IMG/VR virus record: IMGVR_UViG_3300030329_002830
Span: 10,964-74,963 of that record
Length of the DNA: 64,000 bases
Source: a virus
Direction: 5' to 3' (one strand)
In this document: in pieces, positions 2,264 to 57,314 of the stretch
How the letters are laid out: every line of letters begins with the position of its first letter
Position numbering within the stretch: position 1 is the stretch's first letter
Position numbers and translations under genes: made by a program
Notes under the pieces: generated by a model
What the model saw: the letters and a program-made list of their open reading frames with translations, nothing else
What the model was told of the DNA's origin: nothing
Database searches by the model: none

Positions 2264-3637
2264 ATGAATGACAACATTTGTGTGATTGGTGGCGCTAAGT
2301 TTTTACCACCAAACAGCCCGGCAGCAGACCAGATTCGAAACAAGCTCAAGCTCCCAAACCCCGCATACAAGCAGGCCCAAGCTCTTCGCGGTAGAGGCAA
2401 GTGGGTAAACGTGCCCGACGCACACATCAACGGCTGCCAGGAGATTCCGCCAGAGCACCCATGGGGCGGCGGATTGTCTGTTCCAAGGTGTGTCGACTTG
2501 TCTGACTATGGCCTGGAAATGCGAGACATGAGGGGCACGCCAGACGCCAAGCCCGTCAAGCTGCGCTCAAGCATCAGCCTTCGGGACTACCAAAAGGACG
2601 CAATCCATGCGTGGTCGATGGCTGGAGGAGAGGGAGTCATCGTTGCACCTTGTGGCGCTGGCAAGACCGTGATGGGCCTGGCCGCCGCAACCAGGGTCGA
2701 CACAAAGACCCTTGTGCTGGTCCACACCCGCGACCTTGCGTCTCAGTGGCTTGATAGGTGCCGGCAGATTCTCGGCGTAACAGCGACCCTTTATGGTGGC
2801 GGGAAGAAGGACGACTCAGGCCGCATCGTTATCGCCACCTTCCAGACGTTGGAAAGAATGCGCTGGTCTGAGCGTTATCAATGGGCCAAGCAGTTTGGAC
2901 TGTGCATTGTGGATGAGGCGCATCATGTTCCTGCCAGCACGTTTTGCTCAGTCATGGTCACCATTCCAGCCAGGTACCGGCTCGGTTTAACGGCAACGCC
3001 GGATCGACCGGACGGCCTGACAGATCTTCTGCATTGGCACGTTGGTGAGACGGTCTACGCCATCGACACAAAAATGCTCGCCGTTGATGGCCAGGTCATT
3101 GCCCCACGAATCGAATGGCTCAACACGGGGTGGGAGCCGAAGAAGAAGGGGCAGGAGTGGCCCAAGCTCATCACTGACATGACAACCGACATAGACAGGA
3201 ACGTCAAGATTGTCTCTCGTGTTCTCGCCGCTGTAGATGAAGGGCGACAAGTGCTGGTTCTTTCTGACCGCGTTGACCACTGCGCCTTTCTTGCAGAACA
3301 ACTATCAGAATACAGCCTAAAGGCCGTGGCATTCGTTGGAAGTGTGTCCAAGAAGAAAAGAGAGCGAATCTTAGAACAAGCCAACAAGAGAGAAATCGAT
3401 GTCATTTGCGCCACTACAGTGGCTGATGAGGGCCTTGACCTTCCCGGCCTGGACACCGTGATGCTGACAACGCCATCAAAGGCGTTAAATCGTGTTCAAC
3501 AAAGGATTGGTCGAGTGATGCGACCGCACCCCGATAAGAAAGAACCGATTGTTGTTGACCTTGTTGACGAGCCAGGTTCCCTTAGGGGCATCGCACGAAA
3601 GCGACTGCGGTTGTATACTCAGCTTGGATGTAGGTAG
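2264..3637 (+). CDS. Superfamily 2 DEAD/DEAH-box helicase
   Basis: LRDYQ, APCGAGKT, DEAHH, GLTATPDRPDG, EGLDLP, QRIGRVMR. Confidence 0.92.
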   Translation: MNDNICVIGGAKFLPPNSPAADQIRNKLKLPNPAYKQAQALRGRGKWVNVPDAHINGCQEIPPEHPWGGGLSVPRCVDLSDYGLEMRDMRGTPDAKPVKLRSSISLRDYQKDAIHAWSMAGGEGVIVAPCGAGKTVMGLAAATRVDTKTLVLVHTRDLASQWLDRCRQILGVTATLYGGGKKDDSGRIVIATFQTLERMRWSERYQWAKQFGLCIVDEAHHVPASTFCSVMVTIPARYRLGLTATPDRPDGLTDLLHWHVGETVYAIDTKMLAVDGQVIAPRIEWLNTGWEPKKKGQEWPKLITDMTTDIDRNVKIVSRVLAAVDEGRQVLVLSDRVDHCAFLAEQLSEYSLKAVAFVGSVSKKKRERILEQANKREIDVICATTVADEGLDLPGLDTVMLTTPSKALNRVQQRIGRVMRPHPDKKEPIVVDLVDEPGSLRGIARKRLRLYTQLGCR

Positions 3638-6903: not shown

Positions 6904-6979
6904 TGGGGTGTAGCGCAACTGGCAGCGCATCCGGTTGTTACCCGGAAGGTTGTTGGTTCGAGTCCAACCGCCCCAGCCA
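6904..6979 (+). tRNA. tRNA-Asn(GUU)
   Basis: 76-nt cloverleaf: acceptor TGGGGTG/CGCCCCA, D stem GCGC, anticodon arm TCCGG-TTGTTAC-CCGGA, T loop TTCGAGT, discriminator G73, encoded CCA. Confidence 0.95.
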
Positions 6980-15502: not shown

Positions 15503-18500
15503 CTACTCGGGCTCTGACGGTTCATATTCTTTAAGTGCTCTCTCAAGAACATAGATTTGGTCTTTATACAGCTTAGCCTCGCGAGCGTATTCGTGTTCAA
15601 GTGGTTTTGGTCGTGCGCCCATCAGGCCATAGAACTCAAGAATGGAAAAGTCTGTGGGGTCATCTTCGTAAAGGTTTGGACGTGGAAGCATTGTGTCGCC
15701 TCTCCACCCTTCTCCGCCAACCATTCTGCGAGCAGTAGGCGCCTCAAGCCATCCAGCTTCCTCAAGAGGATGTCTCGCATGTTCCCTAAATAGCGCCGAA
15801 AGCTCTACTGCGGTTTCTACAGGTCCAAGGTTGGCTCTATCCATGGCAGAGATAGTATCCATAGAGCGACCGGCGCCTGGTATTTGCAGCAAGTTTCGCC
15901 ACATCCACCAATGTGTTCCGTTCGTAGCGACGTACCGACCACGGCCCGGTGCATCTTCGTATGCCTTGTTGTCTACGGGCTCCCACTTAACTTCCAAAAA
16001 CTCGTAGAGTTGTCCACCGAACATGTTTGCGTCCAGTTCAATCAGCCACGCTGGAACGACATTGTTTCGATTGATGTCGTACCCAAAGTAGAAGTCTTTC
16101 TCACCGGCAACAATAAACGGGGCCTGAACCCACGGTGTTGCCCGAGACACAAGACCCCTGAATGCGTCCTTTCCGCGCTGGCTTTCCTTAAATGCGGCAA
16201 CATCGTAAATGTCGGCCATGAGCCTGATCGCATCCTCAACAGGCAACATCGGCAACAAGAAGGCCGTGCCCTTTTGTCTGTGCTGATTGTGGTAGTTCCC
16301 AATGGACCCAGCAAAAAGACGTGTATCCATCCACTCTGGCAGCACAAGCAATGGGTCCTCTTCATCAAGAACCAACCGTTGCGACCCACGAATCAGGCGC
16401 ATTTGAGCAATAAGCCTTTGAGGGTTTCTCAGGAACGTGTCCCAGAACAAATCGATGTTCTTTCTCTGGTACGAATAGAACATGACGGTGTTGCGCATAA
16501 ACTTGCGCTCAAACTCAGTCAGGTCTGAGTAGTCGAATCCTGCCTTTCTCGCTATGTCTGCCGCAGCGGATGGAGACTTACCCATCGCCAACTCATCTAC
16601 AAAGATGCTTACTCTAAAGTAGTTATCAATGGCAGTGGCAGTCTCGATCATGTTCTGCTGCCACCATTTTGGGGATCGCCTAATAAAGCCAGCAAGCTTT
16701 GGCATCCGTTGTTCGATGTCTCTCGATATGGCCTGCGCTGTTTCAGCCTGAATGAAACTTGATTTCATTCCATGCCGAATCGCCAAGTGTCCAATCATGT
16801 CGTCGGTATAGACCTGGCCAAACCTCGTCACGATTGCGGGAGCGTGTGGCGTATATCCGCCCTCTTTCCACATTCGAGCAACCACAGCGCCAACCATGTC
16901 AGGCCGGCGACCAACCATTTTAAGGAAAGACCCAGGCATCTTTGCCAGATACTTCCCGGCAGCAAAGAACCCCTGCGTCTGGTACGCCTGGAACAGCGCA
17001 CCCAAACTGACACCCGCGTAGTAAGCCGGGTTTGGCAGGCCAAGGCCGGTAGTCACGCCCATCTTAATCCGTGATGCCGTGACCGGATTCAGGTCCATGA
17101 TTGTGTCGAACGCTTTGGCAAGGTGCAGTTGAGCGCGAACGGACTTGGTTTTTTCCGTTGGTGATTCAAGCGCAACATTGCCTCGTGCCGACTTAAGAAC
17201 ACGACCCTTGCCTGCCCATCCTGTCCAAGCCTGACCGACATTAGTTGCACGGGACACGGCATCTTCGATTTCTTTGATGAGCATGAGCGGCACCAGCGCC
17301 TCAGTGCCATCAGGCATCGTGTACCGTTGCCACTTGCCCTTACCAAGCTTGAACCCCCATCCAGCCAAAAGGTCATGCGCCTTTGTATAGGCCACCATGT
17401 CTTTTGTTCCAATACCCCAACGGCCAGGCCCAGCATCTTCTGGCAAGTCATGAAGGTTGAACATGTTGTTCGGTGGCGCAGGCGCAGGGTCGTACTTTGC
17501 TGGCGTTGTATCGGTCTTTCTGCGCAAAAATGCGTTTGAATCCCAACTCATTTCTTTGTTGATGTAAAACGCAACTCGGTCCACAAACTTGTCCCGGTCC
17601 AAAGACGTGCCAGGGCCAAACTTGCGGTGTTCGGTCATTTTTCTCGCATCAAGGGTGACGCCGTACTCTGCCAGATTCCTGGTCATCTTGCTTACAATCT
17701 CATTGGCCCGCATCCGTGCGACCATCTCAAGCATCGCCAGGCTCTGGTCATACTCTGGAATCGCTTCTGGGCTTGCGCCGATGTCACGGCCACGCAGCCC
17801 AGCCCAATCAAACAGAGACTCAAAGTCGCCGTTGTAGAACCAGTCGTAGACCATTCTGTATTCGATTTCAGCGCGCTCAATCAGCAAGTTTGCGTCTGAT
17901 GTTCCCTCAAGCGACATGATGATTTCTTTGGCACGAGAGACAACATCTTCTTTTCGCGTCCAAAGACCGTGATGAATCTCACGGATTCCATCACCGATGG
18001 CATACAAGTCGGCATCCGTCAGGGCTTCCGTTGGGGTGTCTTCGTAGGTGCGAAGAATGCGAAGTGCCGAGCGCTCATGATCCGTCAAGCCATTTGAATT
18101 CTGTAACAGGCCCTGAATGGCGTCCAGTTGGTCATTGATTTCCATTCTGGTAAGCTGCGCAACTTCATCGCCCGAAGCAATCTCACCGCGCTGCATGCGG
18201 CCAAGGCGCCTGGATTCAGCCTCAAGGACACCGCTAAGACGGTCTACAAGGCCAAAGAGTCGCGAAGTGTCGCCTACGTTTACTGGCGCCACAAGCTGAC
18301 CAATCATGCTCTTGTAGACTTCACGCCAAACCGTAGCATTGTCAGTCTTGATGGCGCGGTCAGCCATCTGTAGAAGCCATCGGTCAATCGTGTTGAGTTC
18401 TCGCAGGCTCTCCTGAACAACGCCACGCGGAACTGGATCGATGTAGTCATCACCGAACCCAGATGTCTTGAAGTTCTCAATGATCTTGTTTCTTATTGTC

Positions 18501-21500
18501 CGCACCTTGCCGCTTCTCTTTGCGGCAATCTTGGACATTGTGTTGACTGCGTTGACCATGGCGTGGCCAAGGGTCGGTGAGATGTTCTCTGCGTAGCGGG
18601 TAGCTCTGGCCGACACGCCAGCCTCAACATCAATCATGACCTCAAGGATTCGGTTGTATTGCTCAACACCCATAAGAGTAAAGTCAGCAGCACCGTCGAG
18701 CATGAAGTCAGGCATGATGTTGGACATTGGTTCGGCGCCAAGCTCATGAACCAGCGTCTTCATTCCGGCAGCCTGTGCTGGAGATAGCTCGATAATCGGC
18801 TGGTCGTACCGCATGGTAAACCCAGGCTGCGCACCGAGCCTCCGAGACACGTCCTCCGGCAAAGACTCATTGGCATTGTATGTCTTGAGGTTCTTCGGGT
18901 GGTCTCCCAGGGCGGCAGCAATGCGATGCTTTACAGAGCGCTCAATGCGCTTCATCCGTGACCTCGGAATGAATGTGCGCTTCGTCAAGCGAACCCACTC
19001 ATCACCAATAAGGCCACGCTTAAAGTGCTCTGTAGCCACGTATGCGATGGCATTGTTGACTACCTCAACAACATCAACTTCTGCACTGACGGGACGCCGC
19101 CGTGGAGCCCACTCATGTACGTCTGGGTTCGCGCTGATGTCTTCAAAGTACACCTCAGACTTACCGCCAAGAGCTTGCCTCACACTTTCTGGCCGCAGGT
19201 CAACCCGCGCAGCTTCACGCGCACGACCAGCCTTCTTAACGGCCTCTGCTTCAATTCTTGCCGCGCGAGCCGGGTCAACAACAACCGTGGGATGGCGCTT
19301 CTTCATCACCTGGGCCTGAGTCGTTGACGCATACTGCCGGACTTGTTGATCTGGGCGCAACCACCGATCCCAAAGGTCTTTCATTTCCCTTGGGATGGCT
19401 GGATCTTGACCGCGAAGTCGCCGCCATATCTCTTTAATGGACCAAAGAAGCTGCTCAAACAGCCGCTTGACGGGGCCGGAGGGCGAGAACTTCGACTGCA
19501 TGTAGTGCATCCATGCATCAGCAAGTTGCTCCTCACCAAAGTCCGTCAGCCTGTATGTTCCATCCGGCATGACCTCGTGTTCAAAATGGCGAACAAGCTT
19601 GTTCATCCACTTGTTGCCCATGATGGCAGACACAAGGTGGCCGGACTCATGCCAAAGCGTGTTGATGTCGCCATTGCGGAACAGGGCAACGACGTACTTG
19701 GCGGCTACGGGATCCCACTCAAAATATCCGAGAGCCTCGCCCTCACCCATCATGTAGCGGACTCGCGGGTCAGCCGGGTCGAACGTGCCACGGTTGAACT
19801 TGGACTTGATCTGAGTGGGCTCGAAGACCATGTAGTGGTACGTCCCAGGCTTTACGCCCTCCATACCACGCCGCGTTACGCCAAACTGCTTTCTTGGGCC
19901 GAAGTGATAGTGGGCATCCGCAACGATACCGTCGAATCCCATGCGCTCAAAGACAACACGCATGAACTCCGCGTTTGCGGTGTTTCCAGTGTCTGGATCA
20001 TCAATGAACCAGTCGCCCTCGCGAATACGATCCATCAAAGTGGTTGCGTCAATCTCACCATCCGCCAAGTCATCAAACAATGACTCCTTGAACCGAGCAA
20101 CCTCATCTACGGCGTCAAACTCGGAAGCAACCTCGTCTATTGTTTCGAACAACCGAATGGCGGAGCCTTTTTCATCAACAATGTCGCCAACATCGTCATA
20201 CACATACTCCAACTCGAAGACGGTACGGCCCTTCTTGCCTGACGGGTCGAGGTACACCGGATTTTCCATCTTCAGATAGACGGGCAATACGCTGAACTGC
20301 TGATCGCCTAACGCTGCCTGACGAGCCATTTGCTCAATAATGTCAGACTCATACGCATCAATAAGTCCGTCAGCGTCTTCGGCATCGATAAGACGCCGCA
20401 ACTCTGGCGTCTGCTTTAGTCGACGCGCGGCATCCAAAATGTCAACTTCGTCAAAGTCAGCAAGAGACTCAATCCGATCAATCTCTCGATCAACCCGACT
20501 TTTGATGTCGGGGCCTTCAATCCTTGCGTAGTTTCGATTTACATCAACAACATCATCGCTAAAGTAAATTGACGAGCCAAACGCACCCTCAATATTGCCC
20601 CGCTCAAACGCATCGAAATCCCGTGACGTGCCATGGTAAACAACCAGCGGCTCACCAGCGTCATCGACCACCATGGACCCACCAAACCACCGCCGAAAAG
20701 CCGGGGTCTCGGAAACAGGGGTGACGGGTTCCTCTACCTGTCTTGCAGCAGCCTTTTGACCAAACGAAATTGCTGGCGGGTCGCCATCAAACTTCAGTCG
20801 CTCTCTGGGGAAATCGACAACCCCGAAATCTCTGCGGGCACGCGCTTTAAGGAGTAGAGCTTCTTCAAGAGTAGCTCGCCGTCCAACGTCTGCGATGAGT
20901 CGGTCGAGGGCGACTCTGTCAACACCGGGTCTTGTGAACCAGGGGATTCCGGCAGAGGCGGGGTCTGAGATTTTGAAGCCACGAGGAACAATCCTGTTTT
21001 CTATGTTCTTGTTTTTTGTGTGCTTGTCGAGAACATCATAGTACGCACGCACCGCAGACTGGTCAAGAATGTAGGGGCGACCAGCAGAGTCCTCAAGAAT
21101 GTAGACTCTGCGGCCATCATCCAACGGAACATAGTGCATCCCGTATCGACGCATCGCAAACTTGCCTTCACGGACATAGACGCCGCGTGCTGGCTCACGA
21201 ACATTTAAGGCTTCTCTAAGAAGGATCGAAAGCGTGTTGTGGCCAACCTCTTGACCGCTACTCGCTACCCAGCTTTCCCAGTGAAAACGACCAATAGAAC
21301 CAGCACCCTCGCGACCAACAGCCCGATACGCAGAATCCATGTTGGCAAGAATTGCTTCCTCAATGACTTCATACAAGGCCAGGCCGCGTGCGCCATTTAG
21401 AACCTCTGCCATTCCGCGCTTTGTCGAGATTGGGTGAGGGTTTTTTGCCCAGCGTTGCCACGCCTCTGCTGTTGTCTTCTTGGCAAAGCTTTCGTAGATG

Positions 21501-24500
21501 TCTCTCATTCCGCCATAGTTTCTTGTGGCGCTATCCCAAAAGTGATTCGCTTGAACCCGGTCAATGACCGTGACATCGGTACGACCGGCCACAAGAAGCA
21601 GAAACGATAGGATCTTGTTGTCGACACCAGACTTTTCAACCAAAGAAAAGTAGTTTCGCCTGATCTGCTTCGATGGCATGGACTGATCCAAGATCATGTC
21701 ATGCAGCACCTGAAGCGGAATCTGGCCCGCATTCGGGTGGTCGCTTGGGAGCGGCTTGCTCATCTTAAACAAGAACTGCTTGCCAAAAGAGTTCAGATTG
21801 GCCAGAGCGCCACCACCCGGACCATCAGGGTTGATCACAGGCTTTTGGGCCCTCATGACCTTAGCTTCATCTTTGGTGATTTCACCCGCACTCAACAGAC
21901 GCTTGATTGCATCGGGCTTTTCACTCTTGCTGCCAACCCAAACCAAAAACCTATCAAGCTCAGGACTGCCCTTTGGATACCCATCTGCGGCCTTCGCAAA
22001 ATCACCCCTCGCCGCAGACCGAATGTATGGCTTGACGTTCGCCAAGAATGCATCAATAAAGGCCGCCTCATGCGGGTACGACGAAAGAGACCGGCTCAAG
22101 ATTGACCAAAGCAACAACTGGCCCGTCAGGACTACGTCGGCCTGGCCCGCCTTGTACAAACCACCAATCTGAGACGTAAGCTCAACACCGAAGTTGGCCT
22201 CCTCAATCTGGCCAGGAGTCAGCCTCTTGAGCAACGACACCATGGAGTTTGGGTCTGTAAGGTATTCCCGCGCCTTCCAAGGCGGCTGAAGCACCTGCTT
22301 GTTGCCAGTTACAGCGGACCAAAACTTGTTCCATAGCCGGTCATTTTCAATCGGGTTGACATCGCCAAGCCCGGCACGAATTTCATCAATACGCTCAAAT
22401 GATGCCTTTGCATTTCGAGGTGACGTTCCATACGGAACTGGCCGCTCAAGGTTGGCGTCACTTACGCGAGTCGTGCGAGTAAGCGCAGATGGTACACCAG
22501 AACCTCTTGGCGAGATGTCCGTGTACCTCTCTATTAGCTCATTAATCCTTTCCTGCGGAATCTTCGGAACATCTTTAGTCTTGCCTTTGGCGAACTCTTT
22601 ATTCATGTACCCATTAAGGGTCTCTGCAAGAACCTGTACCCTTTGGGATGCGCTGATTTCATCCACAGAGGTCTTTCCAGTCATCTCCGCAAGACGCTTC
22701 TTGAAGAAAGCATCCTTGTCTGGGTTGATTCGAAGATCACCAAGAACACCACGCAGGTCCTCCAAAGACACCGCGCGAGTAACGCCGGAGCCCTGCACGC
22801 CAAGCGGGTAGCCCTTTAGGTTCTTTGCGGGCTGGCCCTGAACGCTGACGACAATCTCCAGGTCATCAAGAGAGCCAAGCATCCAGACATCATCAGCCCG
22901 GACTGGAACCTCAACCATAACCAAGTTCTTTTGGCTTCTGCGGGTGTGGTGACGCTTAAGCGCATGAGACCCCTCTGGGGTCAGAGAAACGCTAACAGGG
23001 CCAGACACACGGCCATTTCTCCATGCTTTAAGCATGGTTTTCGACATCAAAGCATAGCCATTGAATGTTTCGCCAAGGCGCTCCTTAAGCACAGAAGACA
23101 AAGCCTGTCGATATTCGCCAAACCCATCATGCTGGGCGGCGTCTTTTGCAATCTTCTGCCCGCGAGAAGCCCGATTGGTCTTAGTGTATTCAGCTTCAAT
23201 CGGGCGAAGCTTGTCGGGAACATCGACGCGAGCCAAGTCACTCATCGTGTCCAATGTAGACTTGTATGGTGCAGGGTTCAGGTCTGGGATCTCATCGGAA
23301 AGCTGAAATCTTGCGAACTGTCCCGGCGTTCCATCACGTTGAACTCGAATGACATTGTCGAAGAACTCATTAACGGAGGCAATCGGAACGTCTGGATCAG
23401 ACGCCATCCTGGCCGCAAGTGTTTCAAAGACGGCTTTAATCATGGGATTTGCACGAGCATCCCACCGACCATCCTGCGCAAACTCATCCAGCGTCCTGGA
23501 GAAGTCTTGATACCCCTGACCCTGCCTCATTGCCCGGTCGGTTGGCGCATTTCCGCTGGCAGCCATGTCACGAGCGCGCGTGAAAACATCCCGACCCTGA
23601 CGCACAGTGTCAGCATAAACACCAAGAGCTTCTTCAGGCTCAATCCCGTAAACACGTAGCGCTTCGCTTACTTGGTCTTTTGTGTTTGATGGAAGAATAT
23701 CAAGGGGACTTTTGCCCTGTGCTACTGCTGAATCAGCGGCTGCCTTGTAGAAGTGATTGGCAGCCGTGACTGCATCAGCATCTTCAAGCCCATATCGGTG
23801 CTTGTAGGCCCACGGAGACATCCCCGCCAGGAAACCTTGCGGGCCAATTCCAGCCTTTTGGCCAGCCTTGGCAAGTCGAACGGCCTGCATTGGCTGAACA
23901 ACGCCTGTCCGAACCATCCTGCCAGCAGTCTTCAAGAATGGAGTTTCCCACGGCGTTCCAAAATCAGCAAGAATTGAAAGGTAATTTCCCGCAACATACC
24001 CTTCATCATCCGTGGACATCCCCTGTGTCTTCATGATGTCCGTGATGCGAGGCTGAACACCGACCTCTCCAGTCCCGATTCTGGCCAGCGCAATAGCGGC
24101 AACACCCATCGGGCTGTCGGGCGCACGCAAGAGACCTTCGGTATCACCGATAAGCCCCGCATAAGCCTCCATCGGGGCCAAGTATACTTCCGGCGCGGCG
24201 CCACCCAGCCAGCGGAACCACTTTGAGCCAGTTGACTCTACAACGTACAGGTTGCCCTCATGCTCCTCCACGTCCATCATTGTGCGCTGAATCCAATGCT
24301 GCAAGGTCCGCATCTGGTCGCCACCGCTGGCATCAACGGCTTTAAGCTTTCTTTCAGCCCACTCTTCAAGCTCTGGCATGGTCGGAATCGCGCCATTGAC
24401 GGACGCATACATCCCAGGAACCATCGCAAAAGACCCAATGGCCAACTTGTTTAGCTCCTCCCTGACCGTATTGTTCGACTTCCCCTCTTTGGCCATTCGA

Positions 24501-26005
24501 ATGGCTTTGGCCATGCCGGGTGAACTGCGCTCGATTTGGAGAACCTCAATGTCGCTCTCAGACATAGAGGTCGCGACTTTCTTAAACTCAAATACATTCA
24601 ACTTGCCGCGAGCAAGACCCTGGCTCTCCAGGTCATTGTATGTGGTCGTGTCGAGCAACATCACAAAAGCAGACCGAAGCTCTTTTTCCTTCTTGGGGTT
24701 CGCCTTTATCTGCTTTGAAATCTCGTACATTGCGCGCAAGTTTTCAGGGATCTTTGCGTCCTGAATGTACTGCTCACGCTCCTGAAAGACTTCAGGCTCG
24801 TCGTCAATGGTTGCCGCAAGCGCTTTTCCAGCACCTATTGGACCAGCAACGAGATGACCCGCCAAAACGCCAGCGGCGTGGTCGGGCGTAACTGCTTCAC
24901 GATACTCATCTGAAAGGGCGGCCCGGCCAACACGTACAGCCGCATCCTCAAGCGCAAACCGCAGCCCCTCAGTTAGTCCAGCCGATGTAAAGTCAATGAT
25001 TCTCTCTGGAACACTGGTTCCACGAGTACCAGCCAACTCGGCGCGCTCTATTTCGTCGGCTCTCTCTTCAAACGCTTGCCTCGCTTCTTGAACGTATTGA
25101 TCTGGGTCCTCGACACCCAACCGCTCAGCGGCACCGACAGCAGCATCAAGCGCAATAGCGCCCATCCAACCACCGAGCTTTTCAAAAAACATCGACGCTT
25201 CTGGAACGCTGGCGTAGTGCGCAGTGCGCCTGGCAACACCATCAATGAATCGACCATCGGTTTGCATTTCAAGAGACGCAAGAGAGCCAACACCAGCGCC
25301 AATCATCGCACCCGTATATCCGCCAACCTTAGCACCAAGCGCAAGCCCGGCAGCCGGCAAGATGTACCCCTCACCGTACTTTCCACCAATTGATGGACCC
25401 TTCTCCTCGCCCTCCGGGGTCCACATCTCATTAAGTGGATCGACTTCCTCAAGGGGAACTCTCCGGTCAGGAAGAAGCTCCTCATGGGCAACCTCCAAAG
25501 CCAGCTTCCAACCCTCAAGGTAGTCACCCTTTTCGGCGTTCTCTTCAAGAATCCCCTCGATCTTGTCCGCTTTGTTTTGCAGCCCAGCAATGCGCTGCGC
25601 TGTGCCGGTCAGCGTCGGCCTGGAACCAATGGACTTGGTTCTGGTGGTCATAGCCCCGATGCCGCGCGGCCTTGGTACACCGATATACCTCAAGTCCTCT
25701 ACCAACTCCTGAACCTTTTTCTTTCTCTCTTCCTCATCCATGTTTTCATGCTGTTCGGCATAGTAGAGTTCTGCTTGCTCTTCCAAGACAAGCAGAAGAC
25801 CCTCAGATAGAGCCGGGTCGGGCTCCAATACGGGAGGAGCGGTTCGAGTTTCCTCGAAGTCGGGCGGCTCAAGGTCTTCGAAGACTATCGGCTCATCTAC
25901 TGGCCCAGTAGTCGGAACAATGTCTTGGGCGTCTGCTTTTAGATCTGCAAGAATGTCGTCTTCAAAAGAAATCGGCGCATTGGTATCATCTGAACGTGAA
26001 GGCAC
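15503..26005 (-). CDS. 3500-aa large polyvalent (ejected internal virion) protein
   Basis: ART-PolyVal-like domain (FRRWFG..VVYHGT..VYLKMENP..GFDGI..VFEPTQIKS..GTFD), zincin HESGH, HhH-GPD-like segment, LPD38-like C-terminus (AGFDYSDLTEFER..MFY). Confidence 0.85.
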   Translation of the reverse strand: MPSRSDDTNAPISFEDDILADLKADAQDIVPTTGPVDEPIVFEDLEPPDFEETRTAPPVLEPDPALSEGLLLVLEEQAELYYAEQHENMDEEERKKKVQELVEDLRYIGVPRPRGIGAMTTRTKSIGSRPTLTGTAQRIAGLQNKADKIEGILEENAEKGDYLEGWKLALEVAHEELLPDRRVPLEEVDPLNEMWTPEGEEKGPSIGGKYGEGYILPAAGLALGAKVGGYTGAMIGAGVGSLASLEMQTDGRFIDGVARRTAHYASVPEASMFFEKLGGWMGAIALDAAVGAAERLGVEDPDQYVQEARQAFEERADEIERAELAGTRGTSVPERIIDFTSAGLTEGLRFALEDAAVRVGRAALSDEYREAVTPDHAAGVLAGHLVAGPIGAGKALAATIDDEPEVFQEREQYIQDAKIPENLRAMYEISKQIKANPKKEKELRSAFVMLLDTTTYNDLESQGLARGKLNVFEFKKVATSMSESDIEVLQIERSSPGMAKAIRMAKEGKSNNTVREELNKLAIGSFAMVPGMYASVNGAIPTMPELEEWAERKLKAVDASGGDQMRTLQHWIQRTMMDVEEHEGNLYVVESTGSKWFRWLGGAAPEVYLAPMEAYAGLIGDTEGLLRAPDSPMGVAAIALARIGTGEVGVQPRITDIMKTQGMSTDDEGYVAGNYLSILADFGTPWETPFLKTAGRMVRTGVVQPMQAVRLAKAGQKAGIGPQGFLAGMSPWAYKHRYGLEDADAVTAANHFYKAAADSAVAQGKSPLDILPSNTKDQVSEALRVYGIEPEEALGVYADTVRQGRDVFTRARDMAASGNAPTDRAMRQGQGYQDFSRTLDEFAQDGRWDARANPMIKAVFETLAARMASDPDVPIASVNEFFDNVIRVQRDGTPGQFARFQLSDEIPDLNPAPYKSTLDTMSDLARVDVPDKLRPIEAEYTKTNRASRGQKIAKDAAQHDGFGEYRQALSSVLKERLGETFNGYALMSKTMLKAWRNGRVSGPVSVSLTPEGSHALKRHHTRRSQKNLVMVEVPVRADDVWMLGSLDDLEIVVSVQGQPAKNLKGYPLGVQGSGVTRAVSLEDLRGVLGDLRINPDKDAFFKKRLAEMTGKTSVDEISASQRVQVLAETLNGYMNKEFAKGKTKDVPKIPQERINELIERYTDISPRGSGVPSALTRTTRVSDANLERPVPYGTSPRNAKASFERIDEIRAGLGDVNPIENDRLWNKFWSAVTGNKQVLQPPWKAREYLTDPNSMVSLLKRLTPGQIEEANFGVELTSQIGGLYKAGQADVVLTGQLLLWSILSRSLSSYPHEAAFIDAFLANVKPYIRSAARGDFAKAADGYPKGSPELDRFLVWVGSKSEKPDAIKRLLSAGEITKDEAKVMRAQKPVINPDGPGGGALANLNSFGKQFLFKMSKPLPSDHPNAGQIPLQVLHDMILDQSMPSKQIRRNYFSLVEKSGVDNKILSFLLLVAGRTDVTVIDRVQANHFWDSATRNYGGMRDIYESFAKKTTAEAWQRWAKNPHPISTKRGMAEVLNGARGLALYEVIEEAILANMDSAYRAVGREGAGSIGRFHWESWVASSGQEVGHNTLSILLREALNVREPARGVYVREGKFAMRRYGMHYVPLDDGRRVYILEDSAGRPYILDQSAVRAYYDVLDKHTKNKNIENRIVPRGFKISDPASAGIPWFTRPGVDRVALDRLIADVGRRATLEEALLLKARARRDFGVVDFPRERLKFDGDPPAISFGQKAAARQVEEPVTPVSETPAFRRWFGGSMVVDDAGEPLVVYHGTSRDFDAFERGNIEGAFGSSIYFSDDVVDVNRNYARIEGPDIKSRVDREIDRIESLADFDEVDILDAARRLKQTPELRRLIDAEDADGLIDAYESDIIEQMARQAALGDQQFSVLPVYLKMENPVYLDPSGKKGRTVFELEYVYDDVGDIVDEKGSAIRLFETIDEVASEFDAVDEVARFKESLFDDLADGEIDATTLMDRIREGDWFIDDPDTGNTANAEFMRVVFERMGFDGIVADAHYHFGPRKQFGVTRRGMEGVKPGTYHYMVFEPTQIKSKFNRGTFDPADPRVRYMMGEGEALGYFEWDPVAAKYVVALFRNGDINTLWHESGHLVSAIMGNKWMNKLVRHFEHEVMPDGTYRLTDFGEEQLADAWMHYMQSKFSPSGPVKRLFEQLLWSIKEIWRRLRGQDPAIPREMKDLWDRWLRPDQQVRQYASTTQAQVMKKRHPTVVVDPARAARIEAEAVKKAGRAREAARVDLRPESVRQALGGKSEVYFEDISANPDVHEWAPRRRPVSAEVDVVEVVNNAIAYVATEHFKRGLIGDEWVRLTKRTFIPRSRMKRIERSVKHRIAAALGDHPKNLKTYNANESLPEDVSRRLGAQPGFTMRYDQPIIELSPAQAAGMKTLVHELGAEPMSNIMPDFMLDGAADFTLMGVEQYNRILEVMIDVEAGVSARATRYAENISPTLGHAMVNAVNTMSKIAAKRSGKVRTIRNKIIENFKTSGFGDDYIDPVPRGVVQESLRELNTIDRWLLQMADRAIKTDNATVWREVYKSMIGQLVAPVNVGDTSRLFGLVDRLSGVLEAESRRLGRMQRGEIASGDEVAQLTRMEINDQLDAIQGLLQNSNGLTDHERSALRILRTYEDTPTEALTDADLYAIGDGIREIHHGLWTRKEDVVSRAKEIIMSLEGTSDANLLIERAEIEYRMVYDWFYNGDFESLFDWAGLRGRDIGASPEAIPEYDQSLAMLEMVARMRANEIVSKMTRNLAEYGVTLDARKMTEHRKFGPGTSLDRDKFVDRVAFYINKEMSWDSNAFLRRKTDTTPAKYDPAPAPPNNMFNLHDLPEDAGPGRWGIGTKDMVAYTKAHDLLAGWGFKLGKGKWQRYTMPDGTEALVPLMLIKEIEDAVSRATNVGQAWTGWAGKGRVLKSARGNVALESPTEKTKSVRAQLHLAKAFDTIMDLNPVTASRIKMGVTTGLGLPNPAYYAGVSLGALFQAYQTQGFFAAGKYLAKMPGSFLKMVGRRPDMVGAVVARMWKEGGYTPHAPAIVTRFGQVYTDDMIGHLAIRHGMKSSFIQAETAQAISRDIEQRMPKLAGFIRRSPKWWQQNMIETATAIDNYFRVSIFVDELAMGKSPSAAADIARKAGFDYSDLTEFERKFMRNTVMFYSYQRKNIDLFWDTFLRNPQRLIAQMRLIRGSQRLVLDEEDPLLVLPEWMDTRLFAGSIGNYHNQHRQKGTAFLLPMLPVEDAIRLMADIYDVAAFKESQRGKDAFRGLVSRATPWVQAPFIVAGEKDFYFGYDINRNNVVPAWLIELDANMFGGQLYEFLEVKWEPVDNKAYEDAPGRGRYVATNGTHWWMWRNLLQIPGAGRSMDTISAMDRANLGPVETAVELSALFREHARHPLEEAGWLEAPTARRMVGGEGWRGDTMLPRPNLYEDDPTDFSILEFYGLMGARPKPLEHEYAREAKLYKDQIYVLERALKEYEPSEPE

Positions 26006-39678: not shown

Positions 39679-40734
39679 TTAGAATGTTTCCAGGTCGAAC
39701 GCCAGACCGCTCGAACCAAGGTGCTTAGCGATAAGCTGACCACGGACGCGAATCTTCGCGGCGCGAACGTCGTACTCACCAGACACCGTCTCGAAGTCGG
39801 ACAGGTCGAAGTAGCCCTTCGGATCCCACAAGCAGTGGATGTCGTTCATGTTCAGCATGTAGAAGCTGATCGGGTCACCACCGGTGGTGGCACCAGCGTT
39901 CGGCATGTTGCGCTCGACGTTAATCTGCACACCATCCCAATACTCAACCAGACGACCGCCATCGATCTTGCTCTGGTCAACGTACCGCTCGTGAGCCTGA
40001 AGAGCGCGCTTCAGGTTCTTGAAGCCGGCCCGAGAGGCAAGAATCACGTTCGGGTCACCGTTCGGAGACACGGAAGCAATCTCAACCTTCAGGTCATATA
40101 GACCCGCAAGACCGTTCGAGTTGAACGAGCCGGCGCCATCAAAGCGCTGGTTCTGCCAACCAGTCTTGGAGCTAAAGGTAGACTTGCTGACGCCTCCAAC
40201 CGTGTTGCCCTGAGAACCAACAGCATCTTCCTCAAGGAATCCAGCAACTGAGCCAGTGGCCGCAGCATCAACACCGTTGAGCGTGCCCCAGTCTTCCCAA
40301 CCGGCAACGCCACCCTGGACGATTTGCTTGACGAACTCACGCTTCAATGCGTTTGCAGTCATCGTGACCCGGTTCTCCAGAATGGAGAGGACCGCAGCGT
40401 CACCCTGGTTGACCATCTCTTCCTCAGAAGAAATCGCCACGGGGCGAACAACGTGTGCCCACGAGTACACGGCAGGCTTGAACACGTCCTCGACACTAAG
40501 GTCGATGCGCTCGTAACCAGTGCTCAGTCGCGTAGTGGACGAGTGGTCCTCAAATCCAAGCGGAATCACAATCCGCGTGCCACCAGCCTGGGAAGGCTGA
40601 CCGGCGCCGTGAACGCGCTCGCTCGCATCCAAGAATGCGGTCGACTCATGAATGTTATCGCGCCATTCCTTCATCAGAATGTGCATCGTGGTCGACAGCA
40701 GTTCGTTGCCGATGGTCAGACTAGTGGTGGGCAT
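39679..40734 (-). CDS. Major capsid protein (HK97 fold)
   Basis: 351 aa, strongly biased codons, position after the scaffold. Confidence 0.85.
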   Translation of the reverse strand: MPTTSLTIGNELLSTTMHILMKEWRDNIHESTAFLDASERVHGAGQPSQAGGTRIVIPLGFEDHSSTTRLSTGYERIDLSVEDVFKPAVYSWAHVVRPVAISSEEEMVNQGDAAVLSILENRVTMTANALKREFVKQIVQGGVAGWEDWGTLNGVDAAATGSVAGFLEEDAVGSQGNTVGGVSKSTFSSKTGWQNQRFDGAGSFNSNGLAGLYDLKVEIASVSPNGDPNVILASRAGFKNLKRALQAHERYVDQSKIDGGRLVEYWDGVQINVERNMPNAGATTGGDPISFYMLNMNDIHCLWDPKGYFDLSDFETVSGEYDVRAAKIRVRGQLIAKHLGSSGLAFDLETF

Positions 40735-53907: not shown

Positions 53908-54238
53908 TATCGAATGCCTCGTAGAGTTCCTTGACCGTCTTGTGCAAATTAGTCATGTCGGGCAAACCGTCAAGCTTTTTTGCGGCCAAGTAGGTCTCGT
54001 CGACCTTTATGTACAGGATTTTAATCATAGCAGGGTTGTCTACGTAGGACTCAAGCTCGTGTAGCGCCCACGGTAGGTCAAGTTGGGAAGGAATTCGCTT
54101 TGCCCACCAAGGAACCATCTTCCAGTCCGATTCGCGCAAAGAACAGGCCGAAAGCCACGAATACCACTCGCTGAGAACCATCCGAAGTTGGTGCTGAGCA
54201 CGTCGAGCCAAAGCTTCCATCAGTTCTTGTACGCCCAT
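53900..54238 (-). CDS. Hypothetical protein
   Basis: GGAG RBS; overlaps both neighbours. Confidence 0.55.
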   Translation of the reverse strand: MGVQELMEALARRAQHQLRMVLSEWYSWLSACSLRESDWKMVPWWAKRIPSQLDLPWALHELESYVDNPAMIKILYIKVDETYLAAKKLDGLPDMTNLHKTVKELYEAFDNG

Positions 54239-55263
54239 CGTTTGTAGTCAGCACAACCAGGCTCCATGACACTCATGCCAAATGGCACGTTTGGCTCCTC
54301 GCTCATGCCAAATGGCTGGTCCCAAATGCCATCATGGTGGTCATACCAGAACCAGATGCACTCTTCCCACTCATTTGGAGAAAGGCGCACCCACTTAATG
54401 TGGTAGTGCTTCGAAGCCATCAGCCGTAGCGGCCTTGGCAAGGCCGAAGGATTCTCCTGGTAGACCTGCTTACACAGTCCGATGAAAGCGCGCGAACGCT
54501 GCCTATAGCCCCGCCAACTGCTGAAGTGAATGCGCAAAGTCTCCGAATCAGGCAGATACTTCGCGCAGCGTATGCGCTGGTCGTACAAGTGTTGCGCAGC
54601 CTTGCGGAACTTCCTGTAAACGTCCGTAGGAACAGTTCGGCCATGCTTCAGCATCTCTCGATGCAATGTTCGGAGCACAAACTGCCCAGCACGCAAAACG
54701 TCCGACGGCAAACGCGCATGACGCTCATGCTGGGTCTCAGTCTTGGGCACAATCGAGGAAAAGCGCTTGAAGATGCGCGTCAACCTGCCTGGAGCAACGC
54801 AAAGAGCAGCAACACGCCCAAAAGGGTCGCAAATCGTCAACTGCGTATCTGAGCGATGAAAAGACCAGCAATGTCCGCCAATAGAGTCACTTCTGGCCTT
54901 ATCAAGTGAATCGTGGTCCAAACGGTCATGCCTTTCACCCAGAACAAGCAAAGATGTCGCATTTGGCCGAACAAGATCCATCATGGCCTCGTCCAGCGCA
55001 CCGTAGCGACAGACAACATCGCCAGGAAGCAACCAGTCATCAGCCTGCTTCGGTATCGATGTCAGCCTGAAGAAATGAACGTCCTCAGCCTGCCCAACAG
55101 CAGAAACCTCTCTGTAGGTGTCAATCTCAGAAGGATCCACAACTGGAAGAGACAAAACGCCTGGAACGCCCTCTTTCGGGTAAAACCTGCCCAAACAAAT
55201 GTGGTCTACAACCATCTCAAGAACCTCAGCCTGCACCAAGCATCCTATACGCCCAAAGCACAC
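54220..55263 (-). CDS. Hypothetical protein
   Basis: 347-aa ORF; start codon uncertain. Confidence 0.6.
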   Translation of the reverse strand: MCFGRIGCLVQAEVLEMVVDHICLGRFYPKEGVPGVLSLPVVDPSEIDTYREVSAVGQAEDVHFFRLTSIPKQADDWLLPGDVVCRYGALDEAMMDLVRPNATSLLVLGERHDRLDHDSLDKARSDSIGGHCWSFHRSDTQLTICDPFGRVAALCVAPGRLTRIFKRFSSIVPKTETQHERHARLPSDVLRAGQFVLRTLHREMLKHGRTVPTDVYRKFRKAAQHLYDQRIRCAKYLPDSETLRIHFSSWRGYRQRSRAFIGLCKQVYQENPSALPRPLRLMASKHYHIKWVRLSPNEWEECIWFWYDHHDGIWDQPFGMSEEPNVPFGMSVMEPGCADYKRWAYKN

Positions 55264-55566
55264 GATTCAACTGCGGCGCCCCAAAAGACTGGCCTACAAC
55301 GCTGTATTCCGGCATTCTAAGCCCGTAACCTGCCGAGACTGCTGAACCCTCTACATCTCTATCTCTACTATTATCTATTGGCTTAACGGGGGGGGCTTTT
55401 CAGATTTTTTTTTTGGCGGGCCTCATCGACCCCCTCTCGGCCCCCACCTGGCCTCCGGCCAGCCCCAGCACCCCCATCCCGCCCCCCGAAGGGGGGAGGG
55501 GTCTCCGTTTCCAGCCCAGAGGGCTGAGGGTGGAGTGGGTCCGGCCTGGACCTCTGGTCCACCCCG

Positions 55567-56016
55567 TCACATGGTCCACCTCCGGTGGAGGGGGGTCGCC
55601 TCGCGATCCGCCTGGTTCCCGCGCTGGGCGAGGGCTGCGACCTGGTCGACCTGGTCGGCCTGGCTGGCACCGGGCACCGTGCCCAGGGCAGTGGCCACCA
55701 CCACCGCAGCAGCAGCAGCCACCCGGCGGCCCCACCGGCTGAAGCCGGAGGCCACGCGGGACACGCGCGCGCGGAGAGGAGAAGCCTCAGCCACCACCAC
55801 CAGGGCGGGGGCATCGGCCACCACCACCACCGGGGAGGGGGCGGGGGTCTCGACCTGAGCCACGGGGGCCGGGGTCAGGACCACCACCGCCGGAGCACCG
55901 GGGAGGCGGAGAGCAGCAGCGCGGGACCAGGCCACGAACCGTCCGGTGCGAACACACCGGGCCCGCTGCCGGGGGTCGGCTGCGGTGCGGTTCGAGAAGG
56001 CAAGGACTGCGTGCAT
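55567..56016 (-). CDS. Possible Ala/Val/Pro-rich membrane protein
   Basis: RCVRTGRFV motif, APxVVV repeats and a hydrophobic segment; GC-rich, so it may be spurious. Confidence 0.4.
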   Translation of the reverse strand: MHAVLAFSNRTAADPRQRARCVRTGRFVAWSRAAALRLPGAPAVVVLTPAPVAQVETPAPSPVVVVADAPALVVVAEASPLRARVSRVASGFSRWGRRVAAAAAVVVATALGTVPGASQADQVDQVAALAQRGNQADREATPLHRRWTM

Positions 56017-56146
56017 GCGAAGAACTTGTGCACCGATGGCATGGCGGCAACCCCTCTTGCCTAACTTTCTGCCCAACAAACAAAATGAAAATCTTTTCCT
56101 TAATGATTCCGCACACTTACAGACTTTCTTCACTTTATTTTGCTAT

Positions 56147-56752
56147 GGGGGGGTTGCCGCTGGGCAGCCAGTGTCCAGATTCTCATCGTCGGCGGCACCG
56201 AGCCCCGACCCGCTCTCTGGAATCGCGATTGCGACCCATCGACACCGGGGGAACCCCCGGGAGGCGAAACGCCTGGCAGCGTTCGGGGCAACCCCGAGAA
56301 CACCAGGCAGAGTAGTCAGCCCGAAACGGTCGAGGTGGGATGAAGGACATGGATAGCAACCCACAGCAGGGTACGACAGCGAGGCGATGACCCCCTATAC
56401 AGGGGCGAGCCGAGCCCACTTGAGCCACGCAGCCGTAGTGCACGACCATTCCGCGAGCCCCATGGGGCCGCAAGCGATGGACCCGGAGCACGCAGGTGTG
56501 CCGCAGACGGTGGACGGTACCTGAGCCACGGACCTATCCATGACACTGCTCTGGTGACAGAGTGGGGGGCTTGCCCCCTGCGCCAGAGGAACGGCCCGGC
56601 TCTCCGATGTACTGAGTCATCTGTGGTCCATAGTTTCCCGGTGGACTTGAATAGACGGGAAGGCAGGCCACCCACCTCCTCATGGTGGGCCCCCCTGATG
56701 CCATGGCGTCAGGGGGATGAACACCCCCCCAGCGGGGGGGGCACGATTGGTC
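56147..56752 (+). ncRNA. Candidate large structured ncRNA (~600 nt)
   Basis: No credible ORF; many hairpins; k-turn 56383-56411; long-range helices 56332-39/56671-78 and 56348-56/56534-42. Confidence 0.6.
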
Positions 56753-56824
56753 GGGGCGTGATGCTCGCCCCCTGATGACCGCGCAAGCGGTGGCAGTAGC
56801 CAGGCCCAGCAGGGCCGAAACCAA
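56747..56824 (+). ncRNA. Type III hammerhead ribozyme variant (predicted cut after C56752)
   Basis: UUGGUC, stem I, CUGAUGA, two extra hairpins, stem II, GAAACCAA; loop I UGCU is complementary to loop II AGCA. Confidence 0.75.
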
Positions 56825-56835
56825 CAGGAGTCAGC

Positions 56836-56997
56836 ATGACCCGCAAGCACTTCAAACTCATCGCCCAAACCATCGCCCTCATCACCAACCCGGTCGCCCG
56901 GCGGGAAGCCGCCCGCGACTGGTGTGGCACGCTCCGCCAGACCAACCCACGATTCGACTCAAAGCGGTTCCTCGCTGCGTGCGGGGTGGCAGTATGA
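56836..56997 (+). CDS. 53-aa early phage protein (MTRKHF...NPRFD..RF..ACG family; not in the ORF track)
   Basis: AGGAG RBS; motif I recall from small phage proteins. Confidence 0.75.
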   Translation: MTRKHFKLIAQTIALITNPVARREAARDWCGTLRQTNPRFDSKRFLAACGVAV

Positions 56998-57314
56998 GCG
57001 CCAAGCGATTCATCACAGACCTCCAGGCCCTGGTCCGCAAGTTCCGCGAGGAGTCCATCGAACTCTGCGGACCCAAGTACGCATCGTTCTCCGACACCGT
57101 CGTGTGGGACACGGCCAAGAGTGAGAGCCTCGGCTACGGCAAGTGCGTGGCCCTCGTCTTCGATGGCGGGGGGTACGACGAACTCTCCAGCCAGGGGATG
57201 CTCGCTGACATGGGCAGCGAGACCTACCGAAATCAGGTCTTCGCCCTTGCCAAAAAGCACAACATGCACGCCGAGGACTACGCCAGCTACCTCATCACCT
57301 TCCACGCCAACTAA
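56994..57314 (+). CDS. Hypothetical early protein
   Basis: ATGA overlap with the previous gene; GC3-rich codons. Confidence 0.7.
   Translation: MSAKRFITDLQALVRKFREESIELCGPKYASFSDTVVWDTAKSESLGYGKCVALVFDGGGYDELSSQGMLADMGSETYRNQVFALAKKHNMHAEDYASYLITFHAN

Follow-up and report, generated by a model that had tools for sequence, protein, structure and literature searches.

A phage-borne type III hammerhead with two covarying hairpins inserted in its core, directly upstream of a ribosome-binding site

The DNA analysed here (the window, 64,000 nt) comprises bases 10964–74963 of the viral record IMGVR_UViG_3300030329_002830, which is 74,963 bp long and is rated complete by IMG/VR. At window positions 56747–56824, we found every element of a type III hammerhead ribozyme together with an insert of 24 nt that forms two hairpins and separates A9 from G10.1. 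Judged from its conservation and covariation, this phage-borne element is a member of the type III hammerhead family. Our main reading, to which we assign a probability of roughly two in three, is that it is a catalytically active hammerhead of new architecture, which shortens the transcript at a point just 5′ of the ribosome-binding site (RBS).

Results

Genomic setting of the element

Minus-strand genes span ~8.6 to 56.1 kb of the window and a plus-strand block begins at 56836, the ribozyme element closing the ~700-nt divergent non-coding stretch that separates them. The plus-strand block opens with a 53-codon ORF (56836–56997), which starts with the ATG at 56836 and is preceded by the Shine-Dalgarno (SD) sequence AGGAG, read on the plus strand at 56826–30. 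A tRNA gene (6904–6976, 66.3 bits) stands at the end of the plus-strand block. DNA near-identical to the window is present in marine metagenomes of several studies. A 351-aa ORF (39679–40734) matches major capsid genes, and tblastn with this ORF returned distant matches alone, at <30% identity, in Brucella and Bradyrhizobium podoviruses. Related loci were not found for the 347-aa neighbour (54220–55263, minus strand), the small flanking proteins had no match in PHROGs or Pfam, and a blastn search with 56300–57300 found nothing similar in the GenBank phage collection.

When the window was compared with strain contigs, 14–17 positions differed in ~100 nt at the 53-codon ORF (56830–56961). The ATG at 56836 becomes GTG in these contigs, and position 56830 of the SD is either lost by a 1-nt deletion or changed from G to T. 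The first gene is very fast evolving and adjoins an invariant ribozyme; the substitution patterns do not clearly single out its reading frame.

Anatomy and folding

The original prediction had described all elements of a type III hammerhead followed by an SD, and every base and position agrees with the sequence. All of the features described here lie on the plus strand. Stem III pairs the 5′ strand UUGGU (56747–56751) with the 3′ strand ACCAA (56820–24), U56751 (U16.1) being paired with A56820 (A15.1). The cleavage triplet GUC occupies 56750–56752, with C56752 as C17, and from its position relative to the core the predicted cut falls between C56752 and G56753. There follow the stem I hairpin GGGGCG/CGCCCC (56753–56771), with 6 bp (56753–58 with 56766–71) and the 7-nt loop UGAUGCU, and then the core strand C3–A9, which reads CUGAUGA (56772–56778). 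Inserted hairpin A (CCGC-GCAA-GCGG, 56779–56790) comes immediately 3′ of A9, and inserted hairpin B (UGGC-AGUA-GCCA, 56791–56802) has a zero-length connector to both hairpin A and stem II. The stem II hairpin (GGCCC-AGCA-GGGCC, 56803–56816) has the G10.1–C11.1 pair and is followed by G12, A13 and A14 (56817–19) within the GAAA at 56817–20. Five nucleotides 5′ of stem III lies a further GC hairpin (C7-AGC-G8, 56724–56741), in which GG/GGG insertions vary among strain contigs; a strong hairpin of different sequence is found at the equivalent site in L003, L005, L006, L017, L095 and L332.

All type III core bases are present (C3–A9, G12–A14, the A15.1–U16.1 pair, and C56752 as H17), and the three-helix arrangement is also that of type III, with stems I and II closed by loops, stem III open, and covariation present. 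CUGANGA does not run continuously into stem II, as 24 nt (56779–56802) lie between A9 and G10.1. The minimum-free-energy fold of the isolated element (85–91 nt) is exactly the five-helix structure. When 221 nt are folded, stems I and II and both inserted hairpins are retained, but the weak stem III, which has 5 bp only, gives way to leader pairing; the order of folding may thus matter.

UGCU in loop I had been described as complementary to AGCA in loop II and, with one wobble, to the AGUA loop of hairpin B, and both complementarities are seen in the window sequence. The first would allow 4 bp. In relatives, the loop I/loop II pairing takes the form GCU/AGC, GCC/GGC or UCC/GGA, which shuffles of single sequences often equal, and the pairing is therefore suggestive only.

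Detection by covariance models

At gathering thresholds, Rfam returned nothing at the window element. Below them, Hammerhead_3 (RF00008) aligned the whole element (model positions 1–54) with 22.9 bits (E 0.022 on 601 nt), against a gathering score of 48.5 bits, and assigned 38 nt of it to the stem II region. The suspicion that standard descriptors would miss such an RNA is thus borne out, and the Rfam hammerhead model nevertheless aligns with it over its full length. All five-helix copies tested fall below the Rfam thresholds. Canonical relatives with a single U between A9 and G10.1 also fail that of RF00008 (31.3 and 27.1 bits), so that this threshold is weakly informative for phage type III forms. 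A covariance model made from insert-less relatives scored the window element at 34–44 bits (E ~1e-7 to 1e-9) and had it as its sole match in the 75-kb genome.

Homologues were gathered by scanning viral, metagenome and genome collections for sequence patterns, followed by a structural filter and two covariance models. The scans recovered a type III hammerhead family, often bearing an extra U. Most insert-bearing sequences were fetched by patterns demanding GUC, CUGAUGA and GAAAC, and the invariance of their core is partly built in. With loose patterns, most matches were coding-sequence coincidences, as in an efflux-pump-like gene family, and the scan of the genome_contigs collection gave chance-like matches only (L167, L213, L221), with no convincing prophage copy. 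The five-helix model R2 recovered 22 distinct sequences. It scored the window element, from which it was partly built, at 106.7 bits, and the independent lineages L017, L243, L251 (two copies), L280, L292 and L314 at 42–66 bits.

Relatives without the insert

A 506-aa protein encoded 3.4 kb downstream led to three syntenic viral contigs. Two of them (L003 and L005) have a ribozyme at the syntenic site with identical stems I and II and core, and with a single U between A9 and G10.1. The third and more distant one (L006), also a one-U form, has compensatory changes in stem I (CGGUGC/GCACCG) and stem III (AAUCGU/ACGAUU), and its core, CUGAAGA, varies at the free position N7 alone. L332 is another one-U form, with GACCG/CGGUC as stem II, and a contig of run X17, without insert, combines the core CUGACGA with the stem II GACCU/AGGUC. 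Flanks of the relatives are ~55–65% identical, versus an invariant ribozyme block. The original prediction held that homologues should conserve GUC, CUGAUGA and GAAA, and the sequences found independently of the core vary at N7 only. The core is kept in all four such finds (L006, L332, the X17 contig and the second L251 copy, the only insert-bearing one among them), and GUC is kept in the three members whose retrieval did not depend on it (L006, L332 and the second L251 copy).

Further hammerhead-like sequences were noted in these collections. In L006 (6010–6045), the hammerhead is directly followed by a partial second stem II with GAAAC (GGCCC-AUAGCA-GGGCC-GAAAC), which looks like a duplication remnant. 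Type I-like hammerheads, with stem III closed and stem I open, occur in viral and metagenome contigs (L038, L040, L041, L072, L074, L079, L081, L104, L147, L152), often with one U added between A9 and G10.1; two such copies lie 290 nt apart in L072.

Covariation of the inserted hairpins

Two-hairpin inserts at A9/G10.1 were found in 17 distinct sequences from about eight phage lineages, with GC contents of 37–70%. We define the five-helix family by two hairpins, zero-length connectors and covariation of both hairpins, all of which are found for the window element. Its closest counterparts keep the AGUA loop in hairpin B. Hairpin A has the loop GAAA in L111; in L092, hairpin A has the loop GAGA and hairpin B reads CAGC-AGUAC-GCUG, with two compensatory pairs relative to the window. 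The insert of L092 differs from that of the window at ~7 positions, all structure-preserving, versus none in ~54 nt of the ribozyme proper. L017, a distant relative within the window phage's group, carries CCGGC-GAGA-GCCGG and AUCCC-GCAA-GGGAU at the insert site and differs from the window in stems I and III and in the loops. Further two-hairpin lineages are L236/L249, L280/L293/L311/L309 and L292, as well as L314/L258/L273, with a UUCG loop on hairpin A, and an AT-rich group (L243, L251, L269, L323), in which L251, L269 and L323 each have two different copies.

As to these paired copies, L251 carries two different five-helix hammerheads 2.6 kb apart on an AT-rich phage contig (4339–4436 and 6932–7026), as do L269 and L323. 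The L251 copies have hairpin A (CCAC-GAAA-GUGG) in common and entirely different hairpins B and stems I, with a gene block between them. In L292, the five-helix type III element (3184–3260) lies 2 kb from a type II hammerhead (1065–1161) that scores above the Rfam threshold (50.8 bits).

Covariation in related phage contigs, which the original prediction had named as a test, is seen in all five helices. In a model-fitted alignment of 22 distinct rows (alignment A9), where the fit to the structure itself favours pairing, 97.8% of the cells in the five helices are paired versus 66.1% in shuffles, and the covariation score is 0.724 versus 0.158 in shuffles and ≤0.108 with slid partners. Hairpins A and B change on both sides at four of four pairs each in this alignment, with 98.8% and 100% of cells paired, respectively. 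Stem II changes on both sides at 4 of 5 pairs and covaries in L332, the X17 contig, L236 and L280. Among 21 family members, the cells of stem I are 100% paired and both-side changes are found at 5/6 of its pairs and at 4/6 of those of stem III; for stem III, the counts range over 3–4 of 5–6 pairs counted. The inserted hairpins contain G-U wobbles, and G-U pairs exist on the plus strand only. Going by these patterns, the inserted hairpins are selected RNA structure rather than noise, and the window element as a whole is very probably a real, selected RNA.

The converse would be that the locus has no RNA function and that the hammerhead is a chance look-alike among GC-rich DNA palindromes (promoter, operator or terminator) at a divergent junction. 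The region is indeed GC-rich, hairpin-dense and intergenic between divergent blocks, and a 3500-aa ORF (15503–26005, minus strand) first prompted the suspicion of hairpin promoters for an N4-type virion RNA polymerase. We consider this explanation highly improbable, given the E value and genome-wide uniqueness of the match to the insert-less model, the presence of homologues in unrelated contexts, including between co-directional genes, and the restriction of G-U pairs to the plus strand. In addition, a scan of 55200–57100 for sigma-70 promoters and terminators found no promoter-like site and no plus-strand terminator, and the sole Pfam match of the giant protein is ART-PolyVal (residues 1781–1828), with no RNA polymerase domain by Pfam; the phage is therefore not to be named N4-like from the size of this ORF alone. 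N4-type hairpin promoters were dropped as a candidate in view of this domain content, the RNA covariation with G-U pairs, and the position of the module between genes elsewhere.

A four-way junction at the A9/G10.1 site

In all 17 two-hairpin sequences, no unpaired base separates A9 from hairpin A, hairpin A from hairpin B, hairpin B from stem II, or stem II from G12, and the domain of the G-A pairs and stem III, hairpins A and B and stem II therefore make a perfect four-way junction. The one-hairpin variants (L253, L260, L296 and L312; n = 4) have a 2–4-nt linker 3′ of the hairpin. Three-way RNA junctions generally need unpaired bases and perfect four-way junctions do not, a rule that fits the zero-length connectors of the two-hairpin forms and the linker of the one-hairpin forms. 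Insert lengths at this site are 0, 1, 2, 4, 16, 24, 25 and 26–40 nt. The 16-nt insert of L095 has no clear hairpin and is able to compete with stem I, and this sequence was assigned to neither group.

A different arrangement was observed in a group of metagenome contigs, L077 (3853–3919), L096 (3365–3423), L137 (1858–1914) and L151 (minus strand), in which CUGAUGA is followed by a ~38-nt insert complementary to the sequence just upstream, and then by GGCC-loop-GGCC and GAAAC, with no ordinary stem I visible. From its sequence, this group may be another hammerhead rearranged at the A9/G10.1 site.

We propose that the link between A9 and G10.1, which is empty or a single U in the nearest relatives, has been expanded in the window element into two short hairpins. 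As ordinary hammerheads do, the RNA would keep stem II stacked on its tandem G-A pairs; the two inserted hairpins would form a side arm by stacking on each other, and the catalytic core and the loop I–loop II contact would be left intact. Both this stacking of the junction and the effect on the mRNA described below are what we infer from the arrangement of the helices and genes.

Perfect four-way RNA junctions exchange stacking partners. The element could thus also be a regulated ribozyme, in which the junction switches between two stacking forms, or in which the inserted hairpins serve as a binding site for a protein or ligand, so that cleavage is gated during infection. Only one of the two conformers would keep stem II under the G-A pairs, and the weak stem III competes with the leader in the long fold. 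The suggestion that the AGUA and AGCA loops compete for loop I, and so make the ribozyme switchable, is one version of this idea. It holds up within the window's own clade, AGUA being kept in the window, L111 and L092. It does not extend to the other seven lineages, whose hairpin-B loops (among them AAUUA, GGUU, UCAC, GCAA and UUUA) are unable to pair with loop I. Zero-length connectors moreover leave no conserved unpaired bases of the kind found in a ligand pocket. Hairpin A almost always has a CC/GG base and often a GNRA loop, and the sequence of the hairpins is otherwise free to vary, which fits a demand for architecture better than specific recognition. We therefore regard regulation by the junction or the hairpins as a distinctly doubtful alternative to the main reading.

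Position before ribosome-binding sites

The original prediction placed the ribozyme directly before the SD, and this position recurs across the family: in nearly all members, 7–36 nt separate the ribozyme from an SD and start codon, and the proteins encoded downstream are unrelated. Co-directional ORFs flank some copies, whereas others stand at the front of a gene block, behind a long stretch of non-coding DNA. The arrangement resembles an insulator, with the predicted cut (after 56752) on the 5′ side of the element and the SD (56826–30) behind it, and the same applies to almost all members.

Transcription of the long leader would yield an RNA that cleaves itself after C56752. Its upstream part would then end in a 2′,3′-cyclic phosphate, 11 nt past the GC hairpin at 56724–41, and the mRNA would start with a 5′-OH at G56753. 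A cut at the 5′ edge means that the ribozyme body remains on the mRNA, where the folded RNA would be retained 9 nt before the SD. The first plus-strand gene would in this way gain a fixed, structured 5′ end whatever the upstream sequence, and cleavage would also free the conserved leader RNA. Given the cut predicted at the 5′ edge, and a hairpin upstream that is also found in relatives, we read the element as a 5′-UTR processing module that would fix the 5′ end of the mRNA, and the arrangement makes this role plausible.

The ~600-nt non-coding leader itself (56147–56746) has long blocks conserved with L003 (3000–3760), for example at ~56545–56640, and a counterpart in L005 (3450–4205). Strain contigs barely differ across this leader (2 changes in 232 nt for run X14), versus ~17% change in the downstream ORF, and the leader has the appearance of a separate structured RNA. 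In strain contigs from other marine metagenomes, 56745–56829 are unchanged, with changes at 56740–44 and numerous ones from 56830 on; given the near invariance of the leader, this comparison fails to single out the ribozyme.

A selected fold need not imply catalysis, and the element may instead be a catalytically dead, hammerhead-derived 5′ UTR whose fold is kept to shield the 5′ region of the mRNA or to bind a phage or host translation regulator. The insert adjoins the A9/G10.1 metal-binding site and could slow or abolish catalysis there; no known active hammerhead has >1–2 nt at this place (PMC10085705), and core insertions usually slow cleavage greatly (Perreault et al, PMC3088659). The CC/GG base and frequent GNRA loop of hairpin A are, in addition, a possible recognition feature. 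Against this, a dead ribozyme has no reason to retain GUC, CUGANGA and GAAA, and the core is intact, with variation at N7 only, in the members that were fetched without requiring it. Insert and one-U forms also alternate among close relatives in which the ribozyme is otherwise identical, which argues that the two forms are functionally interchangeable. On balance, a dead UTR seems unlikely, somewhat less so than a regulated ribozyme, and the window element is probably active in self-cleavage.

Discussion

The five-helix form adds a new structural variant to an established class of ribozymes. As in RF00008 (clan CL00010) and in the bacterial and phage hammerheads (PMC3088659), the core is complete, stems I and II are looped, stem III is open and the G10.1–C11.1 pair is present, and as in the latter the element is intergenic in a phage, next to genes. 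The window differs from both by its 24-nt two-hairpin insert, which makes it a five-helix RNA, and by its sub-threshold score. Perreault et al (2011; PMC3088659) listed core insertions at A6a, U13a and 2a/2b, with none at A9/G10.1. A single extra base at A9/G10.1 is tolerated, and U there raises the cleavage rate (PMC3705267; tolerance and favourability also in PMC4209133); as quoted in these two papers, De la Pena and Flores (2001) is a source for hammerheads with one extra base, which include A10 of the CChMVd plus strand and Penelope-like elements. These share the insertion site with the window element, whose nearest relatives (L003, L005, L006, L332) have the one-U form, but the window family has a folded domain of 24–28 nt with covarying helices instead of one bulged base.

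In a 2023 survey, no known hammerhead alignment has more than 1–2 nt between CUGAnGA and the adjacent stems, and the block model of that survey rests on this observation (PMC10085705). The claim that a 24-nt two-helix insertion is unrecorded at A9/G10.1 agrees with this literature (PMC10085705). A full-text literature search, with most subscription journals outside its coverage, likewise returned no description of a hairpin insertion at this point of the hammerhead core. The same survey describes non-circular permuted hammerheads (types SGC, CSG and GCS), found by comparative analysis in metagenomes (PMC10085705), and both these and the window element break an assumed rule of connectivity. In the permuted forms, entire blocks are rearranged and 'Block C' (CUGAnGA with the stem strands next to it) stays in one piece, whereas the window element splits Block C and keeps the ordinary type III order.

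With regard to the junction, its four arms without unpaired bases recall other four-way RNA folds. The hairpin ribozyme has a perfect four-way (4H) junction in its natural form, in which, as expected here, arms stack coaxially in pairs; one arm of the window junction is the domain of the G-A pairs and stem III. To our knowledge, no four-way junction has been described inside a hammerhead core. With regard to the position, RiboJ is an engineered insulator in which a satellite-RNA hammerhead is placed before an RBS. Both have a hammerhead directly upstream of the RBS, a cut on the 5′ side (predicted here) and a ribozyme body kept on the mRNA, but the window element is natural and phage-borne and carries a four-way-junction expansion, and an insulating effect is what its arrangement would lead us to expect.

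More generally, A9–G10.1 would be a natural site of expansion, and the sequences argue, with odds slightly better than even, for a widespread class of active five-helix hammerheads that act as RNA-processing modules before phage RBSs and in which the choice of stacking may tune or gate cleavage. The hammerhead is the most studied small ribozyme, and searches take it for granted that stem II directly follows CUGANGA. Should the five-helix form cleave, this contiguity rule is wrong and current models miss a whole class of phage ribozymes. The core would in that case accommodate a four-way junction next to its metal site, offering structural biology a new natural scaffold and engineering a new point for attaching sensors. 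Finally, the constant position in front of RBSs whose genes are unrelated suggests a testable solution to the long-standing problem of the role of phage hammerheads: if this reading is right, they set the 5′ ends of mRNAs independently of the upstream context.
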